Position numbers and translations under genes: made by a program
Assembly (NCBI GenBank): GCA_964364425.1
Contig: CAYIMB010000002.1
Location: forward strand, 17,436 to 81,435
Direction: 5' to 3'
Length of the DNA stretch: 64,000 bases
From: an uncultured Gammaproteobacteria bacterium
GTDB lineage: Bacteria > Patescibacteriota > Patescibacteriia > UBA9570 > JBBTWU01
Notes under the pieces: generated by a model
Seen by the model: the letters and a program-made list of their open reading frames with translations, nothing else
What the model was told of the DNA's origin: nothing
Database searches by the model: none
Shown here: positions 1-60,247 of the stretch, in pieces
How positions within the stretch are numbered: the first letter of the stretch is position 1
How the letters are laid out: each line of letters starts with the position of its first letter

Positions 1-227
1 TAGAAAAAATAAAAGACCTCTTACTTCAGTGGAAATCAATCATTGCGCGGGCCCAGCAAACAGAAACACCGGTGACTGGCTTTGAAGTGTTGCAAACTGA
101 GTTATCTAGCCTAGCCATTTTGTTTGCTGAGAATGCTTACATTAATGACCAGGGACTGGTGAAGTTAGAGTTGGCACCGCTGCCGGCAGGCAAGTCAGTG
201 CCGTTACCGGACAGACCTCTGGCATAA
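1..227 (+). CDS. Paralog family member (5'-truncated by window edge); C-terminus ...SVPLPDRPLA*
   Basis: Frame ending at TAA 225-227 translates cleanly. C-terminal tail and the junction DNA match the three downstream paralogs. Confidence 0.55.
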   Translation, partial: EKIKDLLLQWKSIIARAQQTETPVTGFEVLQTELSSLAILFAENAYINDQGLVKLELAPLPAGKSVPLPDRPLA

Positions 228-235
228 AAATCGAT

Positions 236-1099
236 ATGAAACTAGAACCACGACCAACACTGAGACGATCAGCTAAAGCCGCCGAGGTACTTGGAGCGCC
301 GACTGAACAACTTGATCTCTTGTTTGATGTAGAAAAAGAGGTGCCCTGTGATGAATTTGAAAAATATAAACGGTGGTTGGCTGGTAAGGAGCCAACTAGC
401 GAGCAAGAAAAGAAAAATGTGGTGGCCAGTGCTTGGTATGGTTTGTTGCATCCTGAGTACAGGGACTTGATGCGTCAGAGTCCCTGGTTAAAAGAATTTT
501 GGGTGAAGTTTTTTGCCAGTGACATGGAAAAAGCCGTTGGGGAGCGTCAAAAAGGAAATAGATATTTTCACATTAGGAATAGTTTCGAAATAGCTGCTCC
601 CTTTGGGCAAGTGTTTCCAGAAAGACGGGCAGATCTCAAGCTGACTGAACAAGCGTATGAATGGCTGCTAGAGAATTTCCCACCATCCAACGAATCCCAA
701 ATCTACAATACTGCTGTTATTTTATTGGAATTATGGCCGGAACGCCGGGAAATTATTCTGTCCACGTATTTTCCTGAAGGTGCGCCTACGGAATTAGGGA
801 AAATCACTGATAATTGGACACTAGGGACCCGCTTGTTACTTTTCCCTGAATTGAGGCCAGCAGCCAGGAGTCACCTCGCCCAAAAGCGAGAACAATATAC
901 AACTGAGATTAGTTATTGGCGGGAGCGCTTTGACAGTGGTGAGCAGGACGCAGCCGGAGCGTTCAACGACTATCTGAAGAACCTCGCTATTTTGAGTGCA
1001 GAACAAGCTTGGATTGATGAAACCGGTATGGAGCATATTGAAATGCCGAGACGGGGAATGAGGAGAGATGTACCGTTACCGGACAGACCTCACGTATAA
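236..1099 (+). CDS. Hypothetical protein, tandem paralog family (C-terminal VPLPDRPHV)
   Basis: 287-aa ORF. ATG lies inside the conserved junction TAAAAATCGATATGAAACTA. Family-typical C-terminus. Confidence 0.6.
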   Translation: MKLEPRPTLRRSAKAAEVLGAPTEQLDLLFDVEKEVPCDEFEKYKRWLAGKEPTSEQEKKNVVASAWYGLLHPEYRDLMRQSPWLKEFWVKFFASDMEKAVGERQKGNRYFHIRNSFEIAAPFGQVFPERRADLKLTEQAYEWLLENFPPSNESQIYNTAVILLELWPERREIILSTYFPEGAPTELGKITDNWTLGTRLLLFPELRPAARSHLAQKREQYTTEISYWRERFDSGEQDAAGAFNDYLKNLAILSAEQAWIDETGMEHIEMPRRGMRRDVPLPDRPHV

Positions 1100-1106
1100 A
1101 ATCGAT

Positions 1107-1976
1107 ATGAAACTACGCCACACACCAGAACGAAAATCCAAACCACGACCCGCAGAGCTTCTAGGTATGGCAGAAAGAGACTCGAGTGAAGAGCGCTTTG
1201 ATCCGTTCCGACATGGCCAACTAGAGGAATACAAACGGTTGTTCATGACCGAATTCAACGAGCAAAAAAGAACTGGCAGGTATGACCCTTTCTTCTGGGC
1301 CAACGACTTGGTTCCCACGTTGGTAGATACATCATGGGTTGAGCAACTAAGGAAAAATGCTGTGGTAAAAGTGGGGGTGGTCACTTTTGCCCAAACAGAG
1401 TTAGCGACCGAGTCAGTCAGTGACTTGTCAAATGATCATTTTCAGCTCTTGGCTAAATTAGCTCAAATATTTCCGGAAGTTAGAATTGACCCTGAAATTA
1501 GTCCGCGGGTGAGAAAGTATTATGACGGCAACGTGGACAGGTGGATTCATTTTTTAGGCGAACGTGGCCCCAAAGCTGAACGGGTGTGTCTGCCTAACTT
1601 AGCTGCGGCCATGCAGCTTGTTCCAGACCAGCAGTCACGGATTACCCAGAGGTTTTTAACCAAAGGCAAAGACAGAGTGCTGTTTTTAGTAAATACTTAT
1701 TTGCCTCAGGAACCCATTAAATCGTTATTAGTTGCAGCTAAGGCTTTACTCATTAACCCAGATATGAGAGCAGAAATTCAAGAACGGCTTGAGCCATATT
1801 GGCCGGAGATCAGAAAAGAAATCAGGGAAAAGAAAACCACTGCCTCATTTTTGGCTGGTTCAATTGTGGGCGCCAAGCAAGTTCAGGTAGACCATAAGGG
1901 AGAGCTGCATTTTGATTTTAGTCGGACAGAGGTATTGAAGGCTTCGTCTCCGTTACCGGAAAGACCTCACGTGTAA
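1107..1976 (+). CDS. Hypothetical protein, tandem paralog family (C-terminal SPLPERPHV)
   Basis: Internal ATG at 1107 (MKLRHTPE...) in the same junction context as the 236 start. Preferred over the 1068 TTG/ATG upstream start. Confidence 0.6.
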   Translation: MKLRHTPERKSKPRPAELLGMAERDSSEERFDPFRHGQLEEYKRLFMTEFNEQKRTGRYDPFFWANDLVPTLVDTSWVEQLRKNAVVKVGVVTFAQTELATESVSDLSNDHFQLLAKLAQIFPEVRIDPEISPRVRKYYDGNVDRWIHFLGERGPKAERVCLPNLAAAMQLVPDQQSRITQRFLTKGKDRVLFLVNTYLPQEPIKSLLVAAKALLINPDMRAEIQERLEPYWPEIRKEIREKKTTASFLAGSIVGAKQVQVDHKGELHFDFSRTEVLKASSPLPERPHV

Positions 1977-2007
1977 ATCGATTTTATTTTAGGGTATATT
2001 CTCATAT

Positions 2008-2202
2008 ATGACTAAAAAGAAACCAATTGTTCGCAAGTCTAAGCTCAAGCGAAAAGAGTTTGTTGATTTGTCTCAGCTCAAAATCACTGGAGGACCACAA
2101 AACCTCTCTAAAGATATAGATAAATATTTGTACGGTCGTTTGAGCCCAGATGTTGACACCCAAGCTCAATCTGGTATGATCGCGCCTGTTCCCTCGAACT
2201 GA
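2008..2202 (+). CDS. Small Lys-rich basic ORF (64 aa), unknown
   Basis: ORF only. Followed by a 7-bp hairpin plus T-run at about 2215-2245, just upstream of rpsL. Confidence 0.25.
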
Positions 2203-2261
2203 TATCGTCAGCCAAAACACCGAGTTGCATCCGTGTTTTAGCCCAACAAACTAGATTCGTT

Positions 2262-2681
2262 ATGCCAACCATGTCTCAGCTGATCCGCAAGGGTCGGAAA
2301 AGTCAGAAAACCAAGTCCAAGACCCCGGCGTTACAGAGTCGCCTCAACGCCCTCCGTCGCAAACGTTCTGAGTTGCCCATGGGCAGCCCATTTATGCGTG
2401 GTGTGTGTGTGAAGGTCACTACCATGACCCCAAAGAAACCAAACTCCGCTTTACGTAAAATTGCTCGTGTTCGTTTGTCTAACGGAATGGAAGTTACGGC
2501 TTACATTCCTGGTGAAGGACATAACTTGCAAGAACACTCTATTGTGTTGATCCGCGGCGGCAGGGTGAAAGATCTTCCAGGTGTGCGGTATCACATTGTG
2601 CGCGGTGTCTATGACACTCAAGGTGTTGACGGTCGCAAACGTGGTCGTAGTTTATATGGTGCCAAAAGCTCTAAGAAATAA
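2262..2681 (+). CDS. rpsL: 30S ribosomal protein S12
   Basis: Highly conserved S12 sequence (…KKPNSALRK…VRGG…). Confidence 0.95.
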
Positions 2682-2692
2682 CTCATACAGAT

Positions 2693-3157
2693 ATGAGAGG
2701 TAAATCAGCTCCAAAACGAAGTATTCTTCCAGATCCTCGGTACAAAAGCACATCCATGGCGAAGTTTATTAACTACATCATGGAACGGGGCAAGAAATCT
2801 GTAGCCCAAAAGATTGTCTACGGCGCGTTTGACATTATCAAAGAGAAGACCGGGAAAGAACCTATGGATGTGTATGATGCCGCTATGAAGAACATCACGC
2901 CGTCTGTGGAAGTGCGTGCCCGCCGGATTGGTGGCGCCAACTACCAAGTTCCAGTGGAAGTGAGTCCAGACCGCCGCTTCACCTTGGCCAGTCGTTGGCT
3001 CATTAACGCTGCTCGGGCGCGCAAAGGCCGCCCCATGGCAGAGAAGTTGGCCGCTGAGATTATGGATGCTCAAAACGAACAAGGTGACGCCTACAAAAAG
3101 AAAATGGATGTCCAACGCATGGCTGAAGCCAACCGTGCTTTTGCTCACTTTGCATAG
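2693..3157 (+). CDS. rpsG: 30S ribosomal protein S7
   Basis: S7 sequence. Follows rpsL as in the str operon. Confidence 0.95.
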
Positions 3158-3185
3158 GATTTAGTTCGATTTTCACAAAAAGTAG

Positions 3186-3268
3186 AGAAGGGCGACGGAA
3201 GCAGGGTCCGCGAGGCAGGGTGATTGAAGCTCCCGAACGAGCGGGCCCTGCTGAGTCGCCCTTTTGGT
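3186..3268 (+). ncRNA. Candidate structured RNA/structured repeat, copy A (homologous to 30992-31072)
   Basis: About 85% identical to copy B. Nested stems with compensatory substitutions between copies. Central loop GAAGCAGGGTGATTGAAGCTCCCG is identical in both. Confidence 0.4.
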
Positions 3269-3333
3269 TTCCATTAGTGAAAGTCGACAAAAAATGCTAT
3301 ACTCAAGGGCATAAGATCATTTATCCACAGCCT

Positions 3334-3732
3334 ATGAAAAAAGTCCTTGCTTTGGTGTCTGGTTGGGCGTTTGCTGCGTTTGCCCCAGTGGCAGCGTTAG
3401 CGCAAACAACCTCAGATTATAATTATAACTATGATTATAATTATAATTCCGGTGTGTCAGATGCCGCCGCCGCTGGCCTAGGAATTGGCCTCTTAATCTT
3501 CTGGGGCATCTTCATGATTATTGGCTTAGCCTTCTTGATCCTGTGGATCATGATGTTGGTTGATGCCATTAAACGCCAATGGCCAGAACGGACCACTTGG
3601 TTGATCATTTTGATCATCAGCTTCTTCCTGGGTTTGCACTGGTTGGCTGCTATCCTGTATTACTTCTTGGTCAAAAAGAAGAATGTGGGAACCAAATCTG
3701 GTGCCGCCGCTCCTATGGCTCCAGCAAAATAG
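3334..3732 (+). CDS. Small secreted/membrane protein (signal peptide, DYNYNYDYNYN repeat, 2-3 TM helices)
   Basis: ATG 3334 preferred over the 3220 start, which overlaps element A. Hydrophobic segments visible. Inserted between rpsG and fusA. Confidence 0.5.
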   Translation: MKKVLALVSGWAFAAFAPVAALAQTTSDYNYNYDYNYNSGVSDAAAAGLGIGLLIFWGIFMIIGLAFLILWIMMLVDAIKRQWPERTTWLIILIISFFLGLHWLAAILYYFLVKKKNVGTKSGAAAPMAPAK

Positions 3733-3864
3733 GTCGATTTTTTACAGACCACAAACACCCGGCCCCATGCCGGGTGTTTGCTTTTGTCTCATTTTGTCTA
3801 AAATGAAGAACCGACCGGAACTGCCTACAGGCAAGTCACGGTCGGTCCTCAGGGTGCAGGGGAA

Positions 3865-4404
3865 TCAGCCCCAGGGACCATTCCCGGGCTCCCAGTCGCA
3901 GGCCCGCTCCAGCCAGTTCTGGTTGTCCGGGTGGTGCCCAATCACTCCCTCCGCGGTGTGCAGCGGGGGCGGGATTTCCACACTGAGCTGCTCCGGCAGC
4001 TCGCGGTAGGCCTGGATCAGGGCGAGCCCCTGGCGCAGCTTGCCGGTCAACTCCATGGCCAGCCCCTGGCGGTAGTGGTACTGCCAGCTCGGCAAGTCCG
4101 GCATCTCTGACACCCTCCCGGACAGCTGGTCCAGGATGGTGTGGAAGCCGGCTTCCACCCGCTGGTCCTGGCAGGAGGTGCTCCCGCGGCCGTGCGTGAA
4201 GCACTCGTTGACCAGGTGCACTGAGATCTGGTGCAGGTCCACCAGGTCCAGCTCGTTGAGCATGCTGTCCACCCGCTGGGCCAGGTGGAACAGTCCGTGG
4301 GCCGCTGAGGCCCGTACTTGCATCATGTGCATCAGAACTCCTTGCCGCTTGGGAAAATAGCGGTCTAGTGCCCCTGTTTTACGCCCAATGGTATAAAAAG
4401 TCAA
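3865..4404 (-). CDS. Hypothetical protein, GC-rich foreign-looking gene (paralog of 4474-4935)
   Basis: 179-aa ORF with a TTG start directly after TAAATCGATTTA. GC-rich codon usage. Shares the W..H..L.GK...ALI.AYRELP.E block with the downstream gene. Confidence 0.5.
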   Translation of the reverse strand: MTFYTIGRKTGALDRYFPKRQGVLMHMMQVRASAAHGLFHLAQRVDSMLNELDLVDLHQISVHLVNECFTHGRGSTSCQDQRVEAGFHTILDQLSGRVSEMPDLPSWQYHYRQGLAMELTGKLRQGLALIQAYRELPEQLSVEIPPPLHTAEGVIGHHPDNQNWLERACDWEPGNGPWG

Positions 4405-4406
4405 TG

Positions 4407-4416
4407 TAAATCGATT
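4407..4416. repeat. AAATCGATTT palindrome (TAAATCGATTTA), 2 nt upstream of the minus-strand TTG start
   Basis: Exact 10-bp palindrome. Confidence 0.9.
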
Positions 4417-4424
4417 TACTCTTT

Positions 4425-4469
4425 TAAAAAAGAAGCGGCCGCTGGTCCCGAAAAGTGGAAACAGCGGCC
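4425..4469 (-). terminator. Rho-independent terminator for minus gene 4474-4935 (GGCCGCTG...CAGCGGCC + T-run)
   Basis: 8-bp inverted repeat followed on the minus strand by CTTCTTTTTT. Confidence 0.5.
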
Positions 4470-4473
4470 AACC

Positions 4474-4935
4474 TCAATGTGCGAAGGGGTCTACTGGGGC
4501 GGGGTGGAAGCCACCTCGCTGGCCTTGGCCGGGGGTTGCCATGAGGGGCCGCGGAGGACGCTTGCGCTCGGGCTCCGTTGGCAGCTCGCGGTAGGCCATG
4601 ATCAGGGCCTTGGCCTCCTTGACCTTGCCCTGGAGCTGCTCGAACTTGGCCACCCGGTGCATGCGCTCCCAGATCGCCAGGGTGGTGAATCCGGAGGAGT
4701 CCAGGTGACACTCGGTGAGCAGATGCTCCAGGCGGTTGACCTTGCTCTCCAGCGTGCCCAGCACAGACGAATCCTGCTGGAGCTGGAAGGCCAGGCTGAC
4801 CAGCTCACTGGCGAGCTGGGTGATGCCGTCCATCTCCTGCTCCCAGTTGGACAGAATGACGGTGTTGTTGACCTGCTGCAGCACCCCGGACAGAGCCAGG
4901 GCCGCGGTGAGCTTGATGTGGATGAGGCGTGCCAA
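4474..4935 (-). CDS. Hypothetical protein, GC-rich (paralog of 3865-4404)
   Basis: 153-aa ORF. GC-rich. Homologous C-terminal block to the neighbouring gene. Confidence 0.5.
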   Translation of the reverse strand: MARLIHIKLTAALALSGVLQQVNNTVILSNWEQEMDGITQLASELVSLAFQLQQDSSVLGTLESKVNRLEHLLTECHLDSSGFTTLAIWERMHRVAKFEQLQGKVKEAKALIMAYRELPTEPERKRPPRPLMATPGQGQRGGFHPAPVDPFAH

Positions 4936-4998
4936 ATGAAAACCCTCCTTATGGGCTTGCCTGTTCTACAGATTTTTTTTCGTTTCGTCAACCAGCTC

Positions 4999-5027
4999 TT
5001 GACGAACACCCTCATTTATCATATGTT
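4999..5027 (+). promoter_or_regulatory. Putative promoter TTGACG-17-TATGTT upstream of fusA
   Basis: Spacing and hexamers match the recurring promoter pattern in this window. The AAATCGATTT palindrome lies between the -10 and the fusA ATG. Confidence 0.4.
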
Positions 5028-5037
5028 CTAGGCCTGC

Positions 5038-5047
5038 AAATCGATTT
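5038..5047. repeat. AAATCGATTT palindrome, 13 nt upstream of the fusA ATG
   Basis: Exact 10-bp palindrome. Confidence 0.9.
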
Positions 5048-5059
5048 TTAATTTTTGTT

Positions 5060-7135
5060 ATGCCTCGAAAATATCCACTAGAAAAAACTCGCAACATTGG
5101 AATCATTGCGCATATTGATGCTGGGAAGACCACGGTATCTGAACGCGTGTTGTTTTACACCGGAAAAACCCACAAAATTGGTGAGGTGCATGAAGGTGAA
5201 GCCACTATGGATTGGATGGAACAAGAGCAAGAACGCGGGATTACCATCACTTCAGCGGCTACCACCTGTTTCTGGAAAGACTGCATGATCAACATCATTG
5301 ATACTCCAGGGCACGTGGATTTCACGGTGGAGGTGGAGCGGTCTTTGCGCGTGCTGGATGGTGGTGTGGTTATTTTTGATGGTGTGGCTGGGGTGGAACC
5401 TCAATCTGAAACAGTCTGGCACCAAGCGGATAAATACAACGTGCCTCGTATTTGTTTCATCAACAAAATGGATCGCACGGGTGCTGATTTTTACAAAGAC
5501 TTAGGCATGATTCATGACCGGTTGACCAAGAACGCACATCCCATTCAGTTACCAATTGGTGCTGAGGATAAATTTGAGGGGATGATTGACCTGCTCACAC
5601 GGAAAGCTTTCTACTACCGGGATGACATGGGTCAACAAGTGGAGGAGTTGGACGTGCCGGCTGACATGCAGGAGAAGGTAGAAAAGTACCGCGGACAGTT
5701 GATTGAAGCCATAGTAGAGCAAGATGAGAAAATGATGGAAGCGTACCTTGGTGGAACAGAGCCGAGTTTAGAAGAACTCAAGACAACGCTTCGTGCCGCG
5801 GTGGTGCAATTCAAAATCATTCCAGTCATGTGTGGTTCAGCTTTGAAGAACAAGGGCGTACAAAAAATGCTGGATGCTGTGGTGGATTACTTACCATCTC
5901 CGGTGGACACCCCAGCTATTGTAGGAACTGATCCAAACGACCCAGAGAAGAAAGTTGAACGTCATGCCAGTGATGAAGAACCAGTAGCCGCCTTGGCTTT
6001 CAAAGTAGCTTCTGACCCTTTTGTGGGTAAATTGACCTTCATCCGTGTGTACTCCGGTGTGTTGCAATCTGGTTCTTATGTGATGAACACCACCTCTGGT
6101 AAAAAGGAACGTATTTCCCGCTTGGTGAAATTACATGCCAACCACCGTGAAGATATTAGCGAGATCAGAGCAGGGGATATTGGCGCGGCGGTGGGTTTGA
6201 AAGAAACCAGGACTGGTGACACCTTGTGTGATGAAACCAACCCAGTGCAATTGGAAAACATTGTATTCCCAGAACCAGTTATTTCTATTGCTATTGAACC
6301 AAAGACCAAAGCTGACCAGGAAAAAATGGGTATTGCTTTGTCTAAACTATCTGAAGAAGACCCAACCTTCCGCGTACAATCTAACGAAGAAACTGGCCAG
6401 ACCTTAATCAGTGGTATGGGTGAGTTGCACCTGGAAATTATTGTGGACCGTATGAAACGTGAATTCTCTGTGGGCGCTAACGTGGGCGCTCCGCAAGTGG
6501 CGTATAAAGAAACCATTTCTCAACACGCTGAAGCTCAAGGAAAATATATCAAACAATCAGGTGGACGTGGTCAGTATGGAGACGCGTGGGTCAAGGTGGA
6601 TCCAAATCCAGGTAAGGGCTTTGAGTTTGTGGATGATGTGGTGGGCGGGGCTATCCCACGTGAATATATTCAGCCAGTGGGCAAAGGAGCCAAAGAAGCC
6701 CTGCTCAATGGTGTCTTGGCTGGCTACCCCATGGTAGATGTGATGGTGACGGTGTTTGATGGTTCTTACCATGAGGTTGACTCGTCTGAAGCGGCTTTCA
6801 AAGTAGCTGGTTCCATGGCTACTCAAGAAGCTTGTCGTAAAGCCAAGCCAGTGATTCTGGAACCGTTGATGAAAGTGGAAGTGATCACCCCAGAACAATT
6901 CATGGGTGATGTGATTGGTGACTTGAACTCCAAACGTGGACAAATTCAAGAGATGACTGACCGGGTGCAAATGAAAGTGGTGCGCGCAGAAGTGCCCTTG
7001 TCAGAAATGTTTGGCTACTCTACTTCACTCCGTTCCATGACCCAAGGCCGCGCTTCTTATTCCATGGAATTCCAAAAGTATGCCCCCGTGCCAAACAATG
7101 TAGCTACGCAGATTATAGAAGGCAAAAAGAAGTAA
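5060..7135 (+). CDS. fusA: Elongation factor G
   Basis: [17 protein letters not shown] and full-length EF-G homology (691 aa). Confidence 0.95.
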
Positions 7136-7140
7136 GGTCG

Positions 7141-7217
7141 ATTTTCACGCGCTCTGGAATGGCTCGGGACTCGCTTGCTCCGCGCTGACGCTTGTGCGCC
7201 TCGAGTCCCTGCGCCAC
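7141..7217. other. GC-rich extended imperfect inverted repeat (GCGCTCTGG...CCAGAGCGC, nested CTCGGGACTCG/CGAGTCCC) immediately after fusA
   Basis: Read directly: 9-bp perfect outer stem plus inner stems. Preceded by GTCGATTTTCAC. Confidence 0.5.
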
Positions 7218-7293
7218 CAGAGCGCTTCAATTACTCTCCTCCGCCATCTTCCGGCGCCTTTTGGTTATTTCAAACCAGTGCTAACATGCAGAC

Positions 7294-8160
7294 ATGAAAT
7301 TACGTTCAGAAGCACGCCGAACGTTCCAGAAATCAGCCGATGTTTTGCTTCCTCATGAAGAGTTGCAACCGCGGATTTTTGATCCGCGTTTAGATTTACC
7401 GGCCGGAGAATATGCAAAATTTCGTGACACTGTTAAACGAGACACCTCTTTTAAGGGACCTAAGAGATTTAAAATTCCCCATGTAGCTTGGATCAGTTGG
7501 TTTGACCCGTCTTATAGAGACGACTTGCGCGGTGTTGATAAATACAAAGAACAGCAGGTATCTGAACTGTTTATAAAAGCTAATCAAGTTCATGGCTTTG
7601 ACTCACAAATGAGAGTGTTAGAATTGAACCTTCAACTTGCCAGAGTGTTGCAACAATTTCCAGAGACTAGAAAAGAATTAAAAGAACTAACAGAAGTTTC
7701 ACGCTTAGAATATGTAATGGAATGGATTCGTGATGGCGTAGATCCACAAATGATTGTGAATTGGATTCAGATTTGGCCTGAACACAGGGCAAGAATTATG
7801 CAAGCAGCCTTTCCTAAAGGGTTGGAGGGTTTCTTGAAACAAGAAGAACAGAATTTATTTGACCCACCTAGCAATCAAGTCAATTATGCAGCCGACTTAA
7901 GTTTGCTTTTTCCAGAATCAAAAGCTTTTTTATTACAGCTGATCAAAGACGCACTCCCAAGAGAGCGAGCGAGACTAAGAGAATTGTCAAAAAGTATTAG
8001 TCCGGATGATTTTAAAACCTACCACCGTTTGATTGGAGACCTTACAATACTAGGTGCTGAGCAGGCTACCATTGATCAACACGGTCTGATTCAGGTTGAG
8101 CTACAACCTCTGCACAAACTCAGTGTCGTGCCACCATTACCGGACAGATCAACGTTATAA
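7294..8160 (+). CDS. Hypothetical protein, fourth member of the paralog family (C-terminal PPLPDRSTL)
   Basis: 288 aa. N-terminus MKLRSEARR.. and C-terminal region align with the 236 and 1107 genes. Stop lies inside TTATAAATCGATTTT. Confidence 0.6.
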   Translation: MKLRSEARRTFQKSADVLLPHEELQPRIFDPRLDLPAGEYAKFRDTVKRDTSFKGPKRFKIPHVAWISWFDPSYRDDLRGVDKYKEQQVSELFIKANQVHGFDSQMRVLELNLQLARVLQQFPETRKELKELTEVSRLEYVMEWIRDGVDPQMIVNWIQIWPEHRARIMQAAFPKGLEGFLKQEEQNLFDPPSNQVNYAADLSLLFPESKAFLLQLIKDALPRERARLRELSKSISPDDFKTYHRLIGDLTILGAEQATIDQHGLIQVELQPLHKLSVVPPLPDRSTL

Positions 8161-8168
8161 ATCGATTT
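8159..8168. repeat. AAATCGATTT palindrome between convergent genes
   Basis: Exact 10-bp palindrome. Confidence 0.9.
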
Positions 8169-8528: not shown

Positions 8529-8601
8529 ATCTACTCACAGAATCAAATCGATTTTTACGGGATTTGATGCTCTGAGCAGAGGAGGATGGTTGGCGGTTCC
8601 A
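8529..8601 (+). repeat. Direct repeat R1 (73 nt; contains AAATCGATTT and an ATCAAATC/GATTTGAT hairpin)
   Basis: Matches 9387-9460 with one substitution and a 1-nt T indel. Confidence 0.85.
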
Positions 8602-8620
8602 TGAAAGTCAAGACCTAAAA

Positions 8621-8682: not shown

Positions 8683-9000
8683 TTACACGCCTCGTTCTAG
8701 AGCCACCAATTTGGCAAATGGTTGTAAGAGTTGCCTCAGTTGACTGAGTGATACCCCGTATTCGCTTGTGTTTTGGCTCAAATCTGCAATCACTTCGTAC
8801 AACCGTCGCAGTTCTTTGCGTTGTTTTGCCGGTGCTCCACCAAAGGCGGAGAAACTGGCCAACTCCAACGCTCTAAATAGGCAGCTCTGGGCATGCTGTT
8901 GATCATTTTTTGCTTGCAAAGATTCCGCCCGCGCTAACTCACTCTCAATGTTCATGAGTTGTGTGGCCAAAGAAAACGTAGCCCAACGTTCAGCCGTCAT
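8683..9000 (-). CDS. Hypothetical helical protein (105 aa), second gene of the cassette
   Basis: ORF overlapping the upstream gene by ATGA (8997-9000). Confidence 0.45.
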   Translation of the reverse strand: MTAERWATFSLATQLMNIESELARAESLQAKNDQQHAQSCLFRALELASFSAFGGAPAKQRKELRRLYEVIADLSQNTSEYGVSLSQLRQLLQPFAKLVALERGV

Positions 9001-9344
9001 AACGCCAGCCGCTCAGTAATCACGGCCGCTACTTGCTGTTGAATAGCCGGATTTTGAATCAAGGTTTGTGTATTGCCTTGTTTGGGCCTGATGTTGATCA
9101 AAGACGTAAATTCCACCTGCTCTCCTTGAGGCCGCCCCGGAAAAATATTTGCTCCCCAGACATTTTTTTGTTTTGAACCTGAATCTAACAACACTGCCTC
9201 CGCATCTGCATGCAACTCACCACCAATGGCCAGAATTTTTTTATCAATATCCACTACCACCTTGACCATATCGCCGAAGGTGTCTTGAGCTAAGGCCAGA
9301 ACTTGTTCTTTTGGAAGTTTGTCGGTAACGATTTGAATTTCCAT
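8997..9344 (-). CDS. Hypothetical protein (115 aa; resembles conserved DUF-type small proteins, ...DMVKVVVDIDKKILAIGGELHADAE...)
   Basis: ORF. DUF-type family assignment is from memory only. Confidence 0.45.
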   Translation of the reverse strand: MEIQIVTDKLPKEQVLALAQDTFGDMVKVVVDIDKKILAIGGELHADAEAVLLDSGSKQKNVWGANIFPGRPQGEQVEFTSLINIRPKQGNTQTLIQNPAIQQQVAAVITERLAL

Positions 9345-9386: not shown

Positions 9387-9460
9387 TTCTACTCACAGAA
9401 TCAAATCGATTTTTACGGGATTTGATGCTCTGAGCAGAGGAGGATGGTTGGCGGTCCCAT
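9387..9460 (+). repeat. Direct repeat R2 (74 nt)
   Basis: See R1. Confidence 0.85.
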
Positions 9461-9476
9461 CACTCCCCGGAAGGTA

Positions 9477-10229
9477 CTACCGAACGGCCGTCCAGACCCC
9501 CATGTCGTCGCCGAAGGGCACGGCCAGGCCCACGTAGATCCGGCACGTGTCGCCGGAGCCGCTGCTGCTGGTCTTCTCGTAGAGGGTGACCGTGTGGTCG
9601 TCCGACGTGACGGTGAAGCCGCCGCAGTCGTCCGACCAGTTGGCGCCGGAAGACCACTCGGCCTGGATGTCCACCCACGAGTGGTCGCTCAGGTCCGTGG
9701 TGGACGGGCTGAACATCAGGGTGTCCGTGGACGCGGACACGCTGGCCGACGCGGAGCCGCCGGACCCGTACCAGGCCCAGATGGTGGCGGGGTAGGTGAG
9801 GCCGCCGCTTGCGTCGCGGGTGACCACAATCCTGAGGACCGTGGTAGCGCTGTCGCCCGTGTCCACGACCGCGGTGTCGGTCACGGAGGTGTCCGCGGTG
9901 TCGCCGGTGCCGTCGCAGTCGGTGTCCACGCCGTCGGTCGGATCCTCGGTCGCGCCGGGGTTCACCGTGGCGTCGCGGTCCGCGCAGTCGCCGCCGAACG
10001 GGGAGTACCCGCGGGGGCGCCGGGTGGCCCAGAGGTCGGAGCCGGGCGCGCCGTAGCCGTCGCGGTCGCCGTCCCACCAGTAGTGGGTGATGACGATCCG
10101 GCTGGTACGGGACAGCGCGGTGTTGCGGACTTCCATGGTCTCGGCGCGGTCGTTGGCGGGGGCCTTGGTCTCTACGACCGGGGCGGTGGAGCGGTCACAG
10201 GCCGCCAGAATCAGAAGCAGGGACGACAT
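9477..10229 (-). CDS. GC-rich lipoprotein with Asp-rich MopE-like putative metal-binding repeats
   Basis: Signal peptide plus lipobox LAAC. Motif DCADRD..VNPGATE..DG.DTDCDG. Foreign-looking GC-rich codon usage. Confidence 0.6.
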   Translation of the reverse strand: MSSLLLILAACDRSTAPVVETKAPANDRAETMEVRNTALSRTSRIVITHYWWDGDRDGYGAPGSDLWATRRPRGYSPFGGDCADRDATVNPGATEDPTDGVDTDCDGTGDTADTSVTDTAVVDTGDSATTVLRIVVTRDASGGLTYPATIWAWYGSGGSASASVSASTDTLMFSPSTTDLSDHSWVDIQAEWSSGANWSDDCGGFTVTSDDHTVTLYEKTSSSGSGDTCRIYVGLAVPFGDDMGVWTAVR

Positions 10230-10463
10230 GGGGTTCTCCCGGAGAATGAGTTTGGCCCTGAAGATGGCACCGAACTCAAGTGAAGGTCATTTCAAGCTGC
10301 GGTTGGCGTTTCTTAGGTACGTGTGAAACCTCCCCAAAAGCACTCAACACCCTTAGGGCAGGGCCAGCAAAAATACATGACAATCGAACCCTTGTCAATA
10401 ATGGGCCTTAATGCCAAAAACACTCAAAATTGGCTTGTCCTAAGGAAATCCACCCCAGTAGAC

Positions 10464-10491
10464 TTTACAAACTAAAAAATGTTGTTATAAT
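10464..10491 (+). promoter_or_regulatory. Putative tuf promoter TTTACA-16-TATAAT
   Basis: Hexamers read directly, about 60 nt upstream of the tuf ATG. Confidence 0.45.
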
Positions 10492-30976: not shown

Positions 30977-30991
30977 GTGACTGCGTGAAGA

Positions 30992-31072
30992 AAGAGTGAC
31001 GGAAGCGGGGTCTGCGAAGCAGGGTGATTGAAGCTCCCGTATGAGCAGACCCCCGCTGAGTCACTATTTGGT
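30992..31072 (+). ncRNA. Candidate structured RNA/structured repeat, copy B (homologous to 3186-3268)
   Basis: See copy A. Lies between the ferredoxin stop and the TTGCAA-16-TATGTT box (31076-31103). Confidence 0.4.
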
Positions 31073-38646: not shown

Positions 38647-39093
38647 ATGCTGGCGACTGCACTGCCAACTGTGACCCTGAAGCCCCCCGCGGGTTTCGTC
38701 CACGATCAGCGTTCCCAGGGCTGGGAGCTCCTAGAAGAAGGCCCGAAGGTCGAAGGAGAGCCCATCCTGGACTTTCTAGGCTTCCTGCGGGAAGGCGAGA
38801 CCTACATCAACGGTGAGACCGTCCTTGCCCGCGCCCTCGAGATGGAAGGGACCGAGAGCGGTCAGCACCACCTCGAGCGGCTGCTCGCCCAGGCCGCCAG
38901 CATCCCCGCGGAGCTGCGCTCGTTCTACCTCGTCGCCACCGGCACCAAGTGGCGGTACCCCGACGGTTACGTGTGCGTCCCGTACCTGCGCTTCGTCGGC
39001 GGCCAGTGGGTCCTGCTCTTCTACGGGGTCGGCAACGACCGCTGGAGCGTCGGCGATCGGGTCGTCCGCGTCTGCAAGCAGCCTGGGTCCTAG
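38647..39093 (+). CDS. GC-rich small protein, cassette copy A (paralog of 50966-51400)
   Basis: Aligns along its whole length with copy B (…GW.L…GEP.L.F..FL..GET…MEG…H.ER.L…IP.ELR.FYLV..GT.WR…VP.L…). Consensus SD AAGGAGGTG. Confidence 0.6.
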   Translation: MLATALPTVTLKPPAGFVHDQRSQGWELLEEGPKVEGEPILDFLGFLREGETYINGETVLARALEMEGTESGQHHLERLLAQAASIPAELRSFYLVATGTKWRYPDGYVCVPYLRFVGGQWVLLFYGVGNDRWSVGDRVVRVCKQPGS

Positions 39094-39176
39094 GGTCTTC
39101 GGAGCCATGGAACTTTTGTTCCCTTTGGCTGCACGGGTCCCTTGGGTCCGTTCCGGCCGTTTTGCACATTCAACGC

Positions 39177-39244
39177 CCCTGTTTCGGAGGAACCTCTCCT
39201 GCGAGGTTCTTCTGGACAGGGGTGTTGTGTTTTCAGGGGGGCTT
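39177..39244 (+). terminator. Hairpin CCCCTGT...ACAGGGG + TGTTGTGTTTT in the conserved 3' tail of cassette A
   Basis: Tail 39094-39260 is homologous to 51401-51560. Confidence 0.45.
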
Positions 39245-39298
39245 TGCTACTTGGTGCAACAGACTGGTGGTGATACTGATGGGGAATCCCGCCTTGGT

Positions 39299-39308
39299 AA
39301 ATCGATTT
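39299..39308. repeat. AAATCGATTT palindrome (TAAATCGATTTA) between cassette A and asnS
   Basis: Exact palindrome. Confidence 0.9.
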
Positions 39309-39368
39309 ACAAGTAAGGAAACGGCTTTAACTAGACAAACTACGGCAAAATAGGCAGAATATGCAGGT

Positions 39369-49544: not shown

Positions 49545-50018
49545 GTGTACTCATTTACCCTTCTCGTTGTCTCCGCTAGCAAGCCCGGTCCCTGGAAAGA
49601 CCTGGCGCAGGAATACCAGACGCGGCTGACTCCGTATGCCAAATGCAAATTGATTGAAATACCTCAAGCGGTTTTTTCTTCTGCAGCAGAGCGCCAGAAA
49701 GTGCAGGCGCAGGAGGCTGAGGTCTTAAGAAAATCGATCTCCAAGGGAGCATATACCGTAGCCTGTGATGAACGGGGGAAATTTTTCACCTCCACCCAGT
49801 TTGCGCAGCAACTCAAGACGTGGTCAGAACAAGAAACCAGAAACATCACGTTCCTCTTGGGCGGCCCGCTGGGCCTGCAACCTGCGTTGGTGCAAACGGT
49901 ACAGGCTAAGCTGGCCCTCTCCAGCTTTACTTTTCCACATGACCTGGCCCGGGTGGTTCTCCTAGAGCAACTCTACCGCGCTATGACCATCCTCAAAGGC
50001 AAAACCTATCATTACTAG
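49545..50018 (+). CDS. rlmH: 23S rRNA (pseudouridine1915-N3)-methyltransferase RlmH
   Basis: SPOUT family. C-terminal ...LEQLYRAMTILKGKTYH. Confidence 0.8.
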   Translation: MYSFTLLVVSASKPGPWKDLAQEYQTRLTPYAKCKLIEIPQAVFSSAAERQKVQAQEAEVLRKSISKGAYTVACDERGKFFTSTQFAQQLKTWSEQETRNITFLLGGPLGLQPALVQTVQAKLALSSFTFPHDLARVVLLEQLYRAMTILKGKTYHY

Positions 50019-50128
50019 CGGCGACTACGGTTGCGTTTGACAAAACAAAAAATAGAGAGCAGAACAAGCTTGGCGCAAACCTCTGCGCTCCTGGTCACAA
50101 GCCAGATTCTTACAACCCGGATCAACAG

Positions 50129-50653
50129 ATGTTGGCCCTGCTCCTGTCCGCCTGTTCCAAACTAGCGCTGGAGGACTGCACTGACCGCCACCACGAGCCC
50201 CGCAACTCCGACACGCACAGCACCTCCGACGGCATCTCGACCAACTCCACTCCGGCCGAGCAGGGTGCCCCCTGCCCTCAGCGCACTGACCAGCGCACGG
50301 GCAACGGGGCCATCACCCTGACCTTGGAGCTGGACAAGCCGGAAACCTTCACCCTGCGTCCGGTCACTGGCCTCACGGTGGAGGATACCTACACCGTCCC
50401 CAACACACACGTCCTGGGCTACAACCCGGAGACCGGGGCTGAGCTGTTCGTGGGGGAGCAGGCAGTGCTCTACTACTGCGACACTGACTTCTGGTTCTAC
50501 TGGGGCGATCTGGACGTGAACCACGTCATGGACTCGCGGGGGAGCGGCCTCTACCACAGCTCACAGCGGATGTACAACGAGGACAGCACCCTGCGTGAGA
50601 CCCGTCAGGTGGACTTCCGGATCCGCGTCACGGGCCTGGTGTTTCGCCAGTAG
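50129..50653 (+). CDS. GC-rich lipoprotein (lipobox LLSAC), unknown function
   Basis: Signal peptide plus Cys. GC-rich. Confidence 0.5.
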   Translation: MLALLLSACSKLALEDCTDRHHEPRNSDTHSTSDGISTNSTPAEQGAPCPQRTDQRTGNGAITLTLELDKPETFTLRPVTGLTVEDTYTVPNTHVLGYNPETGAELFVGEQAVLYYCDTDFWFYWGDLDVNHVMDSRGSGLYHSSQRMYNEDSTLRETRQVDFRIRVTGLVFRQ

Positions 50654-50965
50654 TTGCACCTTTGAGAGGACCTCCACTCTCAGTTCCATGTCGATTTTCA
50701 TGCGCAGAAAAATCGCCATAGAACTGTTCACCACTTGCTGGTGAATTACCGCCCAACGCTGAGTCTGCTGGATTGTGGTGCATGTAGTTTAGAATGTACG
50801 GTGATGCCCAAACTATGGACATTTCCTTCTGAACCTGCTATTATCCGGTGTCGCACTTTGATATTAAGCTATTTACAGTTGATTGCAGGCCTAAGGCCAT
50901 ATTTAACCCTATATAAGGGTTTTATGTGTATTTAGATCTGCAATCAAGCAGAAGGAGGTGTCCCC

Positions 50966-51400
50966 ATGAGCAGCCCCTTGGCGCTCCCTGGCATGAAGCT
51001 GAAGGCCCCCAAGGGCCTGATCTACGACAAGCGGAAGGAGGGATGGGCCCTCACCAAGGAGGGCGACCAGATCGAAGGTGAGCCCGACCTGGAGTTCGTG
51101 CCCTTCCTCCAAGGCGGCGAGACCGCCATCGTGGGAACCACCATGGTGGAACGCGCCGTCGCCATGGAGGGCCTCACCAGCCAGTACCACGCTGAGAGGA
51201 TGCTCCAGCAGCAGGACCAGATCCCGCCGGAGCTGCGGCCGTTCTACCTGGTCTTCGCCGGTACGGAATGGCGGGACTCCGACGGCGACCTCTGCGTCCC
51301 GTGCCTCTTCTGGTACGGCGACGAGTGGATCCTGTACTTCGACTGGCTCGCCCGCGGGAGCTGGGGCTCCCGCGCTCGGCTGGTTCGTCTCCGCAAGTAG
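50966..51400 (+). CDS. GC-rich small protein, cassette copy B (paralog of 38647-39093)
   Basis: See copy A. SD AAGGAGGTG. Homologous 3' tail 51401-51560. Confidence 0.6.
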   Translation: MSSPLALPGMKLKAPKGLIYDKRKEGWALTKEGDQIEGEPDLEFVPFLQGGETAIVGTTMVERAVAMEGLTSQYHAERMLQQQDQIPPELRPFYLVFAGTEWRDSDGDLCVPCLFWYGDEWILYFDWLARGSWGSRARLVRLRK

Positions 51401-51636
51401 CTTCGGCCCTTGGATCCTTTGGGAGTTGGCCCTTTTGGCTCCCTTGGATTCTTGGTCCGTTTTGTTCGCTTGCACCTTGGCTGTGCCCCCGTATGGACAG
51501 ATCTCACAAGGATCAGTTCAGCGGGGGTGTTGTCTTTTATATGAATATTGATACATAGGTGGGACTCCAACGATCGGCTGGTTTGTCTCCGCAACTCACT
51601 TCATTCTTCCGCCTCCATGGGCGGAGGTTTCAGGCG

Positions 51637-57005: not shown

Positions 57006-57304
57006 CTACATAGCCAATGACCGTTCAGGTAGGGGATGGTTGGTAAACTTTTTTGGTTTCGCAATTTGTATTTCTCCGTTGGGTGTAAACTCCACCGTTT
57101 CCGCCAGCATGATTTTGAAGGCAGCATAGCAGGCGAGTTTGAATCTGGGCTCTGATACGTCAGCTATTCGTAGTTTGATCCGGGATTCAGCTGCCAGGAC
57201 CTTCTGGTGCAAGGCCTCATATTTGGTTGGGTCGTATCTTGAGTACCAGTAAGCCCGGGTATAGTAGCATATTCTTCTGGCATATGGTATAATTTTTCCT
57301 GTCT

Positions 57305-59385: not shown

Positions 59386-59452
59386 AGGGACATTGTATCT
59401 GGGTCGGAGGCGCGTTGCAAGAAAGTCAAAAAAATGCTATATTCATAGAATC

Positions 59453-60247
59453 ATGAACGCCAACCAACCAAATATAAAACCGTTAGAGCCGGTGAGTTTT
59501 GATGATCTGGAACCGGAGGTGCTTGAAGTGCCTGCTGAGTTACCCACACCTGAAGGAGGCTCGCTCAAAGACAGAATCCTGGAGCAAGCAAAAAAAGAAG
59601 AGGCAGATGCCGCAGCCATAGAGGCGGCTAAGGAGGAGGTGACGGTGGATAAGTCACTGGATCAGCCGGTGGCTGTTCCGGCTCAACCGGAGACAGCGCC
59701 AGCCGTACCTGTTGTAGCACCTGAAACAGCGGCCCTGCCTGAAGCAGTATCGGCTGAAGCCACGCCGGCTGAAGCACCTGCCCCTCTGCCGGAATTACCC
59801 CCAGTGCCGGAACTTCCGCCTGTACCTGAGGCTGCGCCTACGGAAACCGAACAACCAAAACCAAGCAAACCACAAGCGCAAGTGCCGGCTCAACCGGTTA
59901 CACCTCCTCCTGCTGAGGCGCTGGTGCAGACTCAAACAGAGAAGACGGAGACGCGCAAGCAAATCGAATCAATTCTGCAAGAAGGGTTGGCACCCATGTT
60001 TTTACAAATGGATCAACAGGAACGGCAGGTATTTACAGCCGCAGCTAATGAGACCGCTTCCAAGTTGGAGTTGTTGGTGACACAATTTAAGGCGTCAGCC
60101 AAAGAGGTGTTGCGTTTGATCAAGGCTTGGCTGACAAAAATTCCAAAGATCAACAAGTATTTCTTGGAACAAGCAAGCAAAATAAAGACGGATGAAATTT
60201 TACTGATGCAAACGCAAAAGAAAAAGGAATCACGTTTACTTCATTAG
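59453..60247 (+). CDS. Pro/Ala-rich hypothetical protein
   Basis: ATG 59453 (MNANQPNIK). The upstream 59393 start is poor. Confidence 0.45.
   Translation: MNANQPNIKPLEPVSFDDLEPEVLEVPAELPTPEGGSLKDRILEQAKKEEADAAAIEAAKEEVTVDKSLDQPVAVPAQPETAPAVPVVAPETAALPEAVSAEATPAEAPAPLPELPPVPELPPVPEAAPTETEQPKPSKPQAQVPAQPVTPPPAEALVQTQTEKTETRKQIESILQEGLAPMFLQMDQQERQVFTAAANETASKLELLVTQFKASAKEVLRLIKAWLTKIPKINKYFLEQASKIKTDEILLMQTQKKKESRLLH

Follow-up and report, generated by a model that had tools for sequence, protein, structure and literature searches.

The vlp/vsp genes of Mycoplasma, pilE/pilS of Neisseria and vls of Borrelia have conserved termini and evolve by unequal crossing-over or gene conversion; they encode surface antigens, and come with an expression site, phase-variable promoters or truncated silent copies. 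In Patescibacteria, the VirB2 proteins, small (about 100 amino acids) hydrophobic membrane pilins linked to type IV secretion genes, are encoded by arrays of 2 to 11 tandem paralogs that average about 25% amino-acid identity, read as diversification of one function (PMC12102498). We report here an array of tandem, divergent paralogs in a stretch of 64,000 nucleotides (hereafter the window) belonging to a Patescibacteria metagenome-assembled genome from Hainich groundwater. The paralogs retain DNA identity at their two ends, and arrays of related genomes differ by whole genes, which we call cassettes. We consider it reasonably probable (about 0.6) that they form a hyperdiverse, binding-type protein family in which the constant ends serve at the same time for in-frame crossovers, the birth and death of cassettes there yielding repertoires that differ between genomes.

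In the window genome the array lies beside rpsL and reads A-B-C-D, with a lone copy, E, after fusA. The window begins inside B. A contig of the European Nucleotide Archive (ENA), L001, shares 2014 nucleotides with the start of the window, from L001:8077 onward and with a single mismatch, and carries two further tandem copies upstream of C, namely A and the full-length B. The tandem array that the initial annotation described from four genes is therefore real, and longer. The family copies and junctions are the following (HMM, hidden Markov model).

1..227, plus strand: 3′ end of paralog B (74 codons and stop), translation ending ...VPLPDRPLA*; HMM match E 5e-16
L001:7416-8303: full gene of paralog B, on the overlapping contig
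198..244, plus strand: junction B-C, made of PLPDR-coding DNA, 3 tail codons, TAA, AAATCGAT, then the ATGAAACTAGAACC head; repeat family D1
236..1099, plus strand: paralog C, 287 amino acids; NCBI AAB558_02305, annotated as hypothetical protein
1070..1115, plus strand: junction C-D; repeat family D1 and window self-BLAST
1107..1976, plus strand: paralog D, 289 amino acids; open reading frame (ORF) with MKL start and PLPER end
1947..1984, plus strand: 3′ end of D, made of PLPER-coding DNA, tail, TAA and the palindrome AAATCGATTT
7294..8160, plus strand: paralog E, 288 amino acids, singleton downstream of fusA; NCBI AAB558_05175, HMM E 1.7e-75
8131..8168, plus strand: 3′ end of E, made of PLPDR-coding DNA, tail, TAA and the palindrome AAATCGATTT
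57006..57302, minus strand: C-terminal family fragment (beta-hairpin and HPLPERSLAM tail); HMM positions 212-290, E 8e-7 in a six-frame profile search, and PLPER motif search

In the window genome every array copy is a full-length ORF that begins with ATG, and 7-8 nucleotides separate one copy from the next; the C-D spacer is the 7-nucleotide AATCGAT, placed between the TAA stop and the ATG start. The array was recovered in independent ENA/NCBI and Logan assemblies, which makes an assembly artefact unlikely. The five paralogs are 20-28% identical to one another, so that the strong divergence of the bodies noted initially is confirmed. The MKL starts and the PLP(D/E)RP ends had been attributed to all four genes: coordinates, MKL and PLP[DE]R hold, and RP fails in E, which ends PLPDRSTL. 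The closest other protein to E in the protein library is 48% identical, and for this singleton the view that the family has spread within the str region is a fair one. A search for partial copies elsewhere, also suggested initially, yielded the fragment at 57006-57302; its ORF has 68 amino acids only and it is probably a decayed family copy.

DNA identity at the gene ends

Motif counts over the 64 kb placed the shared DNA at the ends of the genes. The sequence CCGTTACCGGA[CA]AGACCTC occurs 3 times and TTACCGGA[CA]AGA 4 times, in every case at a family gene end, while ATCGATATGAAACTA occurs exactly twice, at 230 and 1101, which are the two junctions. When the window was compared with itself by BLAST, junction 198-244 matched 1070-1115 at 89%, this being one of three repeated DNA segments only.

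We then counted how often aligned identical residues of the five paralogs use the same codon, and compared the counts with the expectation from window codon usage. In the bodies, the same codon was found 205 times for 214.7 expected (raw fraction 0.38). The first 8 codons gave 29 for 13.8 expected (raw fraction 0.78), and the last 9 codons 48 for 16.8 expected (raw fraction 0.89). As all pairs derive from five related genes, they lack independence, and effect size is a better guide here than P values. The bodies are fully randomised at synonymous sites, even at conserved internal motifs, and both ends retain DNA identity. The initial annotation had seen nearly identical 3′ ends and 5′ contexts across junctions, and this stands for the gene ends; E has ATCGAT downstream only and not upstream. 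It had further proposed recombination or gene conversion between cassette ends, an idea that survives the comparison fixed for it beforehand, since the ends are more conserved in DNA than the bodies are at synonymous sites.

Cassette turnover in related genomes

Contigs encoding relatives almost always have several copies in a row. Related contigs carry 2-6 tandem family copies each, at four or more chromosomal positions, and five of them cover the locus of the window array. No neighbour gene is common to the different positions.

L003: 3 copies at the str locus, and one beside an NHL-repeat gene
L004: 3 copies at the str locus (one split into two ORFs), and one beside an NHL-repeat gene
L006: 3 copies, then VapBC and rpsL
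L007: 4 copies between map and murE/ftsI
L009: at least 6 copies, short contig
L010: 5 copies after a queG-like gene
L011: 2 + 2 copies around an aldehyde dehydrogenase gene
L012: 4 copies, short contig
L013: 3 copies, then a PIN-domain (VapC-like) gene and rpsL

Spacers range from 2 to 16 nucleotides in these arrays, and certain genes overlap as ATGA. The genes that flank the array have 77-92% DNA identity when L003, L004 and L006 are compared with the window genome. Within the array, where slots contain non-orthologous copies, DNA alignments are limited to the short junctions and to such cassettes as are orthologous. Six ortholog groups were recognised.

Group A: window and L013, 84%
Group B: window, L012 (89%) and L006 (57%)
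Group C: window, L012, L003 (74-77%) and L006 (43%)
Group D: window and L013 (75%); L004 (split into two ORFs)
Group Y: L012 and L003, 79%
Group X: L012 and L013, 77%

The str-locus arrays read A-B-C-D in the window genome, B-Y-C-X in L012, A-D-X in L013 and Z-Y-C in L003, and these four are ordered subsets of one series, Z/A-B-Y-C-D-X. L004 (L4_1-D-L4_3) and L006 (B-L6_2-C) keep the common cassettes in the same relative order, and each adds cassettes without ortholog in the other arrays. Such ordered subsets would fit repeated loss of whole cassettes from a larger array. Orthologs have a ratio of nonsynonymous to synonymous substitutions (dN/dS) of 0.11-0.21, compared with 0.03-0.12 in the genes that flank the array; dS between genomes is 0.5-2. 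These values indicate that the array orthologs are working genes under purifying selection, which evolve somewhat faster than their neighbours.

The tails of the genes do not follow the bodies. In 6 of the 7 ortholog pairs, 56-78% of the bases differ in the three codons after PLPxR, versus 10-24% in the body (binomial P from 6e-5 to 0.04), and in orthologs that are 83-89% identical the tails differ at 67% of bases. The single concordant pair is Y (L012 and L003), the only one that shares its downstream neighbour in both genomes. In one case the exchange can be followed in the DNA: the 3′ end of the L012 copy of C and that of the L013 copy of D show no relationship as far as CCGTTACC; two bases later, at CTAGACTCACCGCATAAAATCGAT, they become identical and stay so into gene X. 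A crossover in the PLP-coding motif has, in one lineage, joined a C body to a D-type distal tail, with removal of the intervening DNA. The differing ordered subsets, the discordant tails and this chimeric tail all favour the recombination at cassette ends that was proposed initially.

An extra family copy lies between an NHL-repeat gene and an M50 peptidase gene in L003 (4711-5625) and L004 (3078-3932). The window genome has only a short 3′-end remnant of it, with ATCGAT, at L001 3816-3905, just before a shared bidirectional terminator. Precise excision at ATCGAT is not supported, as the remnant left by the lost copy is ragged.

The palindrome found after the D and E stop codons, AAATCGATTT, has 8 exact copies in the window. 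A tolerance of one mismatch raises the count to 20, for which 100 shuffles gave 3.0 on average and 7 at most. The exact copies are placed as follows.

1975: after the D stop
4408: upstream of a GC-rich minus-strand gene
5038: fusA leader, a few bases past the predicted fusA transcription start; conserved in L006
8159: after the E stop
8545 and 9403: one in each copy of a 73-nucleotide direct repeat
35829: inside a P-type ATPase gene
39299: beside a GC-rich island

A one-mismatch form, AAATCGATAT, is present at the B-C and C-D junctions (228, 1099), an extended form, GTAAATCGATTTAC, at 4406 and 39297, and a near match, TAAAATCGATTTAC, at L007 and L011 junctions. TAA followed by ATCGAT recurs at junctions of L003, L004, L006, L007, L009, L012 and L013. 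It is missing from all L010 junctions and most L011 junctions, and we therefore rejected ATCGAT as a universal feature of the family: it is a trait of the lineage and of the genome that rides on the junction, and does not define the family. A role of AAATCGATTT as a DNA-uptake sequence is unlikely, given that 6 of the 8 exact copies cluster within the first 10 kb, which is variable.

The protein family and explanations for the array

A profile search of 1.84 billion cluster representatives (clusters at 50% identity, E cut-off 0.001) matched 171 of them, 58 at E ≤ 1e-10. Nearly all are 270-310 amino acids long and matched end to end, and the ~171 clusters stem from a handful of metagenome projects. 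Word-index searches of the protein library gave about ten relatives among the matches listed, and a search of this type with the profile of 80 sequences gave close relatives among its listed candidates. The consensus starts with a basic, extended arm, MKL..R..RR..AxEVL..FDP, followed by a variable, all-alpha body with three to four helix-pair repeats beginning [FW]-P-E-x-R; LxILxAExAxIDxxG stands between the repeats and the C-terminus. Repeats R2, R3 and R4 are related to one another (E 3e-5 to 1e-4 by profile comparison). The very C-terminus is P-L-P-[DE]-R plus three residues, the PLPxR part being conserved family-wide at the protein level and the last residue usually small and hydrophobic. 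AlphaFold models of C (predicted local distance difference test, pLDDT, 91.2; predicted template-modelling score, pTM, 0.86) and D (pLDDT 89.7, pTM 0.84) have the same architecture though the two proteins are ~21% identical, with an extended N-terminal arm, 14-15 helices, a two-stranded hairpin and an extended C-terminal arm. The PLPxR end of the modelled C-terminal arm has a pLDDT of 82-83 and the preceding linker 66 in D and 80 in C, which hints that the PLPxR segment may be docked on the protein and not be a free tag.

The window copies had no Pfam match. When 80 members were scanned singly against Pfam, NCBIfam, PADLOC and PHROGs, no family was matched by more than one member, and none came near its curated cut-off; the best E-value against PDB sequence profiles was 0.15. 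Foldseek gave no significant match (E above 0.7, template-modelling score, TM, below 0.35), helical-repeat and alpha/alpha-toroid binding proteins such as TPR, ARM, designed toroids, transcobalamin and C3d-like barrels included. The absence of a library match disposes of the possibility, raised at the outset, of a known family with an ordinary C-terminal motif. The five paralogs have no signal peptide, lipobox or hydrophobic or membrane segment: their maximum 19-residue hydropathy is 0.57-1.57, a value of 1.6 is exceeded in only 2 of 80 family members, and the first 25 residues are basic and strongly hydrophilic. Among GTDB species representatives no relative was found with the alignment of C orthologs, nor with the flanking 542-amino-acid membrane protein. 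Nothing was found in JGI metagenomes with the protein pattern or the junction DNA pattern, and nothing in IMG/VR, which leaves no evidence for a phage origin. We conclude that this is a real, undescribed and lineage-restricted family of soluble, all-alpha helical-repeat proteins of ~290 residues. Every member is annotated as hypothetical at present, and the family merits a database entry.

Signals that could drive separate expression of the copies were looked for. No Shine-Dalgarno sequence was seen upstream of any window gene, ribosomal protein genes included (two GC-rich genes are described below), and a scan for promoter and terminator consensus found none inside the array; strong promoters were predicted in the same scan for rpsL (2153-2180), fusA (4999-5027) and tuf (10464-10491). 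An internal promoter at each junction is thus unsupported. RNA structure at the junctions did not go beyond that of shuffled sequence (z −0.5 to +1.9), so that a conserved junction structure was rejected as well. The lack of internal promoters, terminators and Shine-Dalgarno sites, together with the tight head-to-tail packing, suggests that the array is probably one transcript, whose successive cistrons would be closely coupled in translation. By eye, a stop codon and A-run mimicking a −10 box was seen 4-6 nucleotides before the ATG of A, D and E; being inconsistent across arrays, it was not relied on. Also by eye, a −10-like hexamer ends 6-7 nucleotides before the ATG of A (L001), of E (7294) and of an ORF at 2008, and would fit leaderless transcripts.

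The mechanism that we propose is as follows. DNA similarity between copies is confined to a junction of ~50-60 nucleotides, made of the PLPxR codons, three tail codons, TAA, the spacer (ATCGAT in this lineage) and ATGAAACT... Homologous recombination inside this junction would delete or duplicate whole cassettes in frame, each product being a complete protein, sometimes with a hybrid tail, and this would be the main route of array turnover between related genomes. As for the proteins, they would most likely offer different binding specificities within a repertoire that serves a single task: differing partners would be recognised by the diverse body, and the constant arms would share a docking or latching function.

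Several observations weigh against this proposal. Import of cassettes from other genomes would explain the ordered subsets equally well, and is indistinguishable from losses out of a large ancestral array. The tail discordance test uses 9 nucleotides per gene. A general test of tail variant against downstream neighbour was not significant, the mean differences being 5.0, 4.9 and 4.7 in the three classes, and tails are barely more alike within a genome than between genomes (9.5 versus 10.8 differences in 27 nucleotides). The notion that a tail variant always follows the downstream gene was rejected on this ground, and the case for chimeric tails is carried by one clear example and the discordance test. 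What the alignments support is recombination at the PLPxR motif, with no strict rule pairing tail and neighbour. Lastly, part of the nucleotide conservation looks more like the product of selection than of recombination. In 35 family genes from about ten contigs, the Leu of PLPxR is TTA in 21 of 33 and the Arg is AGA in 21 of 35, while these codons make up 27% and 23% in family bodies. The first 8 codons are conserved between orthologs, with a synonymous divergence (pS) of 0.17-0.18 in both pairs tested. The codon preference and the conserved heads suggest that some constraint may act at the nucleotide level, for example on the start context of the next cistron.

These same data are what selection alone would explain, if the MKL and PLPxR motifs were essential, the start unstructured and well spaced for coupled translation, and the palindrome regulatory, with recombination incidental. 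The family-wide conservation of both MKL and PLPxR in the protein, the preference for TTA and AGA across distant arrays and the low synonymous divergence of the heads agree with it. So do the junction RNA, which is as unstructured as shuffled sequence or less structured, the presence of AAATCGATTT at non-family intergenic sites such as the fusA leader, and the L010 arrays, which hold tight junctions without ATCGAT. It accounts poorly for the tails. In sliding windows along the C ortholog pair (window versus L003), the last 9 codons reach a pS of 0.80, saturated like the body, which means that tail DNA is not conserved there as sequence. The tails that differ at two thirds of their bases in closely related orthologs are at odds with it too, conserved body residues show no excess of shared codons, and the chimeric C/D-to-X tail requires a crossover. 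Recombination and selection probably both contribute to the conservation of the ends, and we hold selection on its own to be rather unlikely as the full explanation. Programmed antigenic or phase variation, the analogy drawn in the initial annotation, would have one expressed copy into which the other, donor cassettes are copied through their conserved ends. Conserved ends with divergent bodies, tails discordant with bodies and two stand-alone C-terminal fragments (window 57006-57302 and L010 10397-10645) are what it would predict. The lack of signal peptide, lipobox and membrane segment, however, means that the proteins are not surface antigens, the window-genome array copies are all complete ORFs with just two split copies in the related contigs, and orthologs, which are under purifying selection, are still 74-89% identical. 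Nor are the copies arranged as one expression site with silent copies. Among the ORFs listed, and in part scanned against Pfam, for the window and for 6.4 kb of upstream L001 sequence, none was noticed that would encode a recombinase or invertase. The analogy is not supported, and programmed variation of this kind is hardly credible here.

Two other explanations concern what the proteins do. They could be orphan immunity-like proteins that neutralise diverse toxins of competitors or hosts, as tandem, highly divergent, cytoplasmic arrays with fast turnover and helical-repeat bodies typical of binding proteins might suggest; the arrays also lie in a variable spot that houses VapBC modules. But no toxin gene adjoins the array in any locus read, PADLOC and Pfam immunity families gave no match, and proteins of 290 amino acids with conserved arms at both ends are unusual among immunity proteins, so that we find this quite improbable. 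Alternatively, the proteins could be exported effectors or substrates, with the C-terminal PLPxR + 3 arm, the basic N-terminal arm or both serving as a signal for, e.g., Patescibacteria type IV secretion, and the variable body acting on the host bacterium. Constant ends around a variable body, and a last residue that is usually small and hydrophobic, would suit such a role. A type IV coupling protein with TrwB_AAD_bind and TraG-D_C domains is encoded at 60253-62769, and type IV secretion systems are widespread in Patescibacteria, where they are thought to have been repurposed (PMC12102498). Against this, no array is linked to secretion genes among the loci read, which place the arrays beside housekeeping, membrane, NHL-repeat, VapBC or dcw-cluster genes; the three residues that follow R exchange freely, and the tail, with a pLDDT of about 80, is modelled as if docked on the body. 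We regard export as improbable, even if a C-terminal sorting or processing signal, also named initially, is possible.

Our preferred explanation remains that of a binding-type repertoire renewed by crossovers in the constant ends. A bolder version, which we put forward as speculative and doubtful, would give PLPxR a double use, as a docking or recognition element of the protein and as a DNA crossover site that reassorts, deletes and duplicates specificity modules in frame. It would provide an episymbiont of reduced genome with a variable repertoire for host interaction, e.g. type IV secretion substrates or adaptors, and the palindrome (G)TAAATCGATTT(AC), also present at other variable spots, would be a dedicated regulatory or recombination signal. 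Patescibacteria genomes are very small, yet five or more genes in this lineage are given to one hyperdiverse family. Using the coding DNA of a motif as the crossover for gain and loss of whole genes would be a simple way to vary a repertoire without a dedicated recombinase, and the binding partners, once known, could reveal how episymbionts deal with hosts, phages or competitors.

Other features of the window and comparison with known systems

The stretch between the array and rpsL contains, at 2008-2202, a VapB-like antitoxin remnant without PIN-domain toxin. At the same place, L004 and L006 have the VapB-like antitoxin ORF intact, with a PIN-domain gene after it, and L013 has an 83-amino-acid ORF and a PIN-domain gene. 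As this content differs between genomes, the stretch is a variable spot.

GC-rich islands, with 57-61% GC in 1-kb windows versus about 46% for the genome, are found at 3830-5000, 9440-10290, 38800-39320 and 50000-51560, and are probably acquired foreign genes. Minus-strand genes 3865-4404 and 4474-4935 are paralogs with AAGGAG(G) ribosome-binding sequences, which resident genes lack; L006 has one copy. Gene 9477-10229 encodes a protein with a MopE-like metal-binding motif. The 73-nucleotide direct repeat mentioned above (8530-8602 and 9388-9460, 99% identical) brackets a minus-strand two-gene unit, composed of a DUF5674 protein gene (8997-9344) and a 105-amino-acid ORF (8683-9000), which looks like a recent insertion or duplication.

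An element of ~80 nucleotides, with two copies that are 85% identical (3187-3265 and 30991-31070), folds into a hairpin of 26 pairs, 5 of which show compensatory changes between the copies. Neither copy matches Rfam. One is upstream of a small membrane-protein ORF, the other upstream of the gene for the alpha subunit of a 2-oxoacid:ferredoxin oxidoreductase. It could be a structured RNA or cis-regulatory element that has not been described before. At 59393-60247, a proline/alanine-rich ORF of 284 amino acids without Pfam match precedes the type IV coupling protein gene.

With regard to known systems, the VirB2 pilin arrays are the closest published parallel within the phylum, being tandem arrays of divergent paralogs as well (PMC12102498). 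Unlike the pilins, the proteins described here are soluble, all-alpha and 270-310 amino acids long, and no secretion genes adjoin their arrays. With vlp/vsp, pilE/pilS and vls they share DNA identity limited to the gene ends, where recombination alters copy number and makes chimeras; they differ in that the copies of the window genome are complete, the proteins cytoplasmic and the orthologs under purifying selection. The arrays also recall integron cassettes, with co-oriented, packed, promoterless ORFs, presence or absence of whole cassettes and a short conserved boundary sequence. Their junctions, however, are 2-16 nucleotides long and unstructured, and not attC hairpins of 57-141 nucleotides; the breakpoint lies within coding DNA, and all cassettes come from one protein family. 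In the window and in the 6.4 kb that precede the array in L001, where part of the ORFs were scanned, nothing resembling an integrase gene was noticed. Set beside TPR, ARM, designed toroids, transcobalamin and C3d-like barrels, the family has its own PExR repeat signature, a C-terminal beta-hairpin and two conserved arms. The protein family is new; the evolutionary mechanism is of a known kind, and it is the placement of the crossover inside a conserved coding motif that is unusual.

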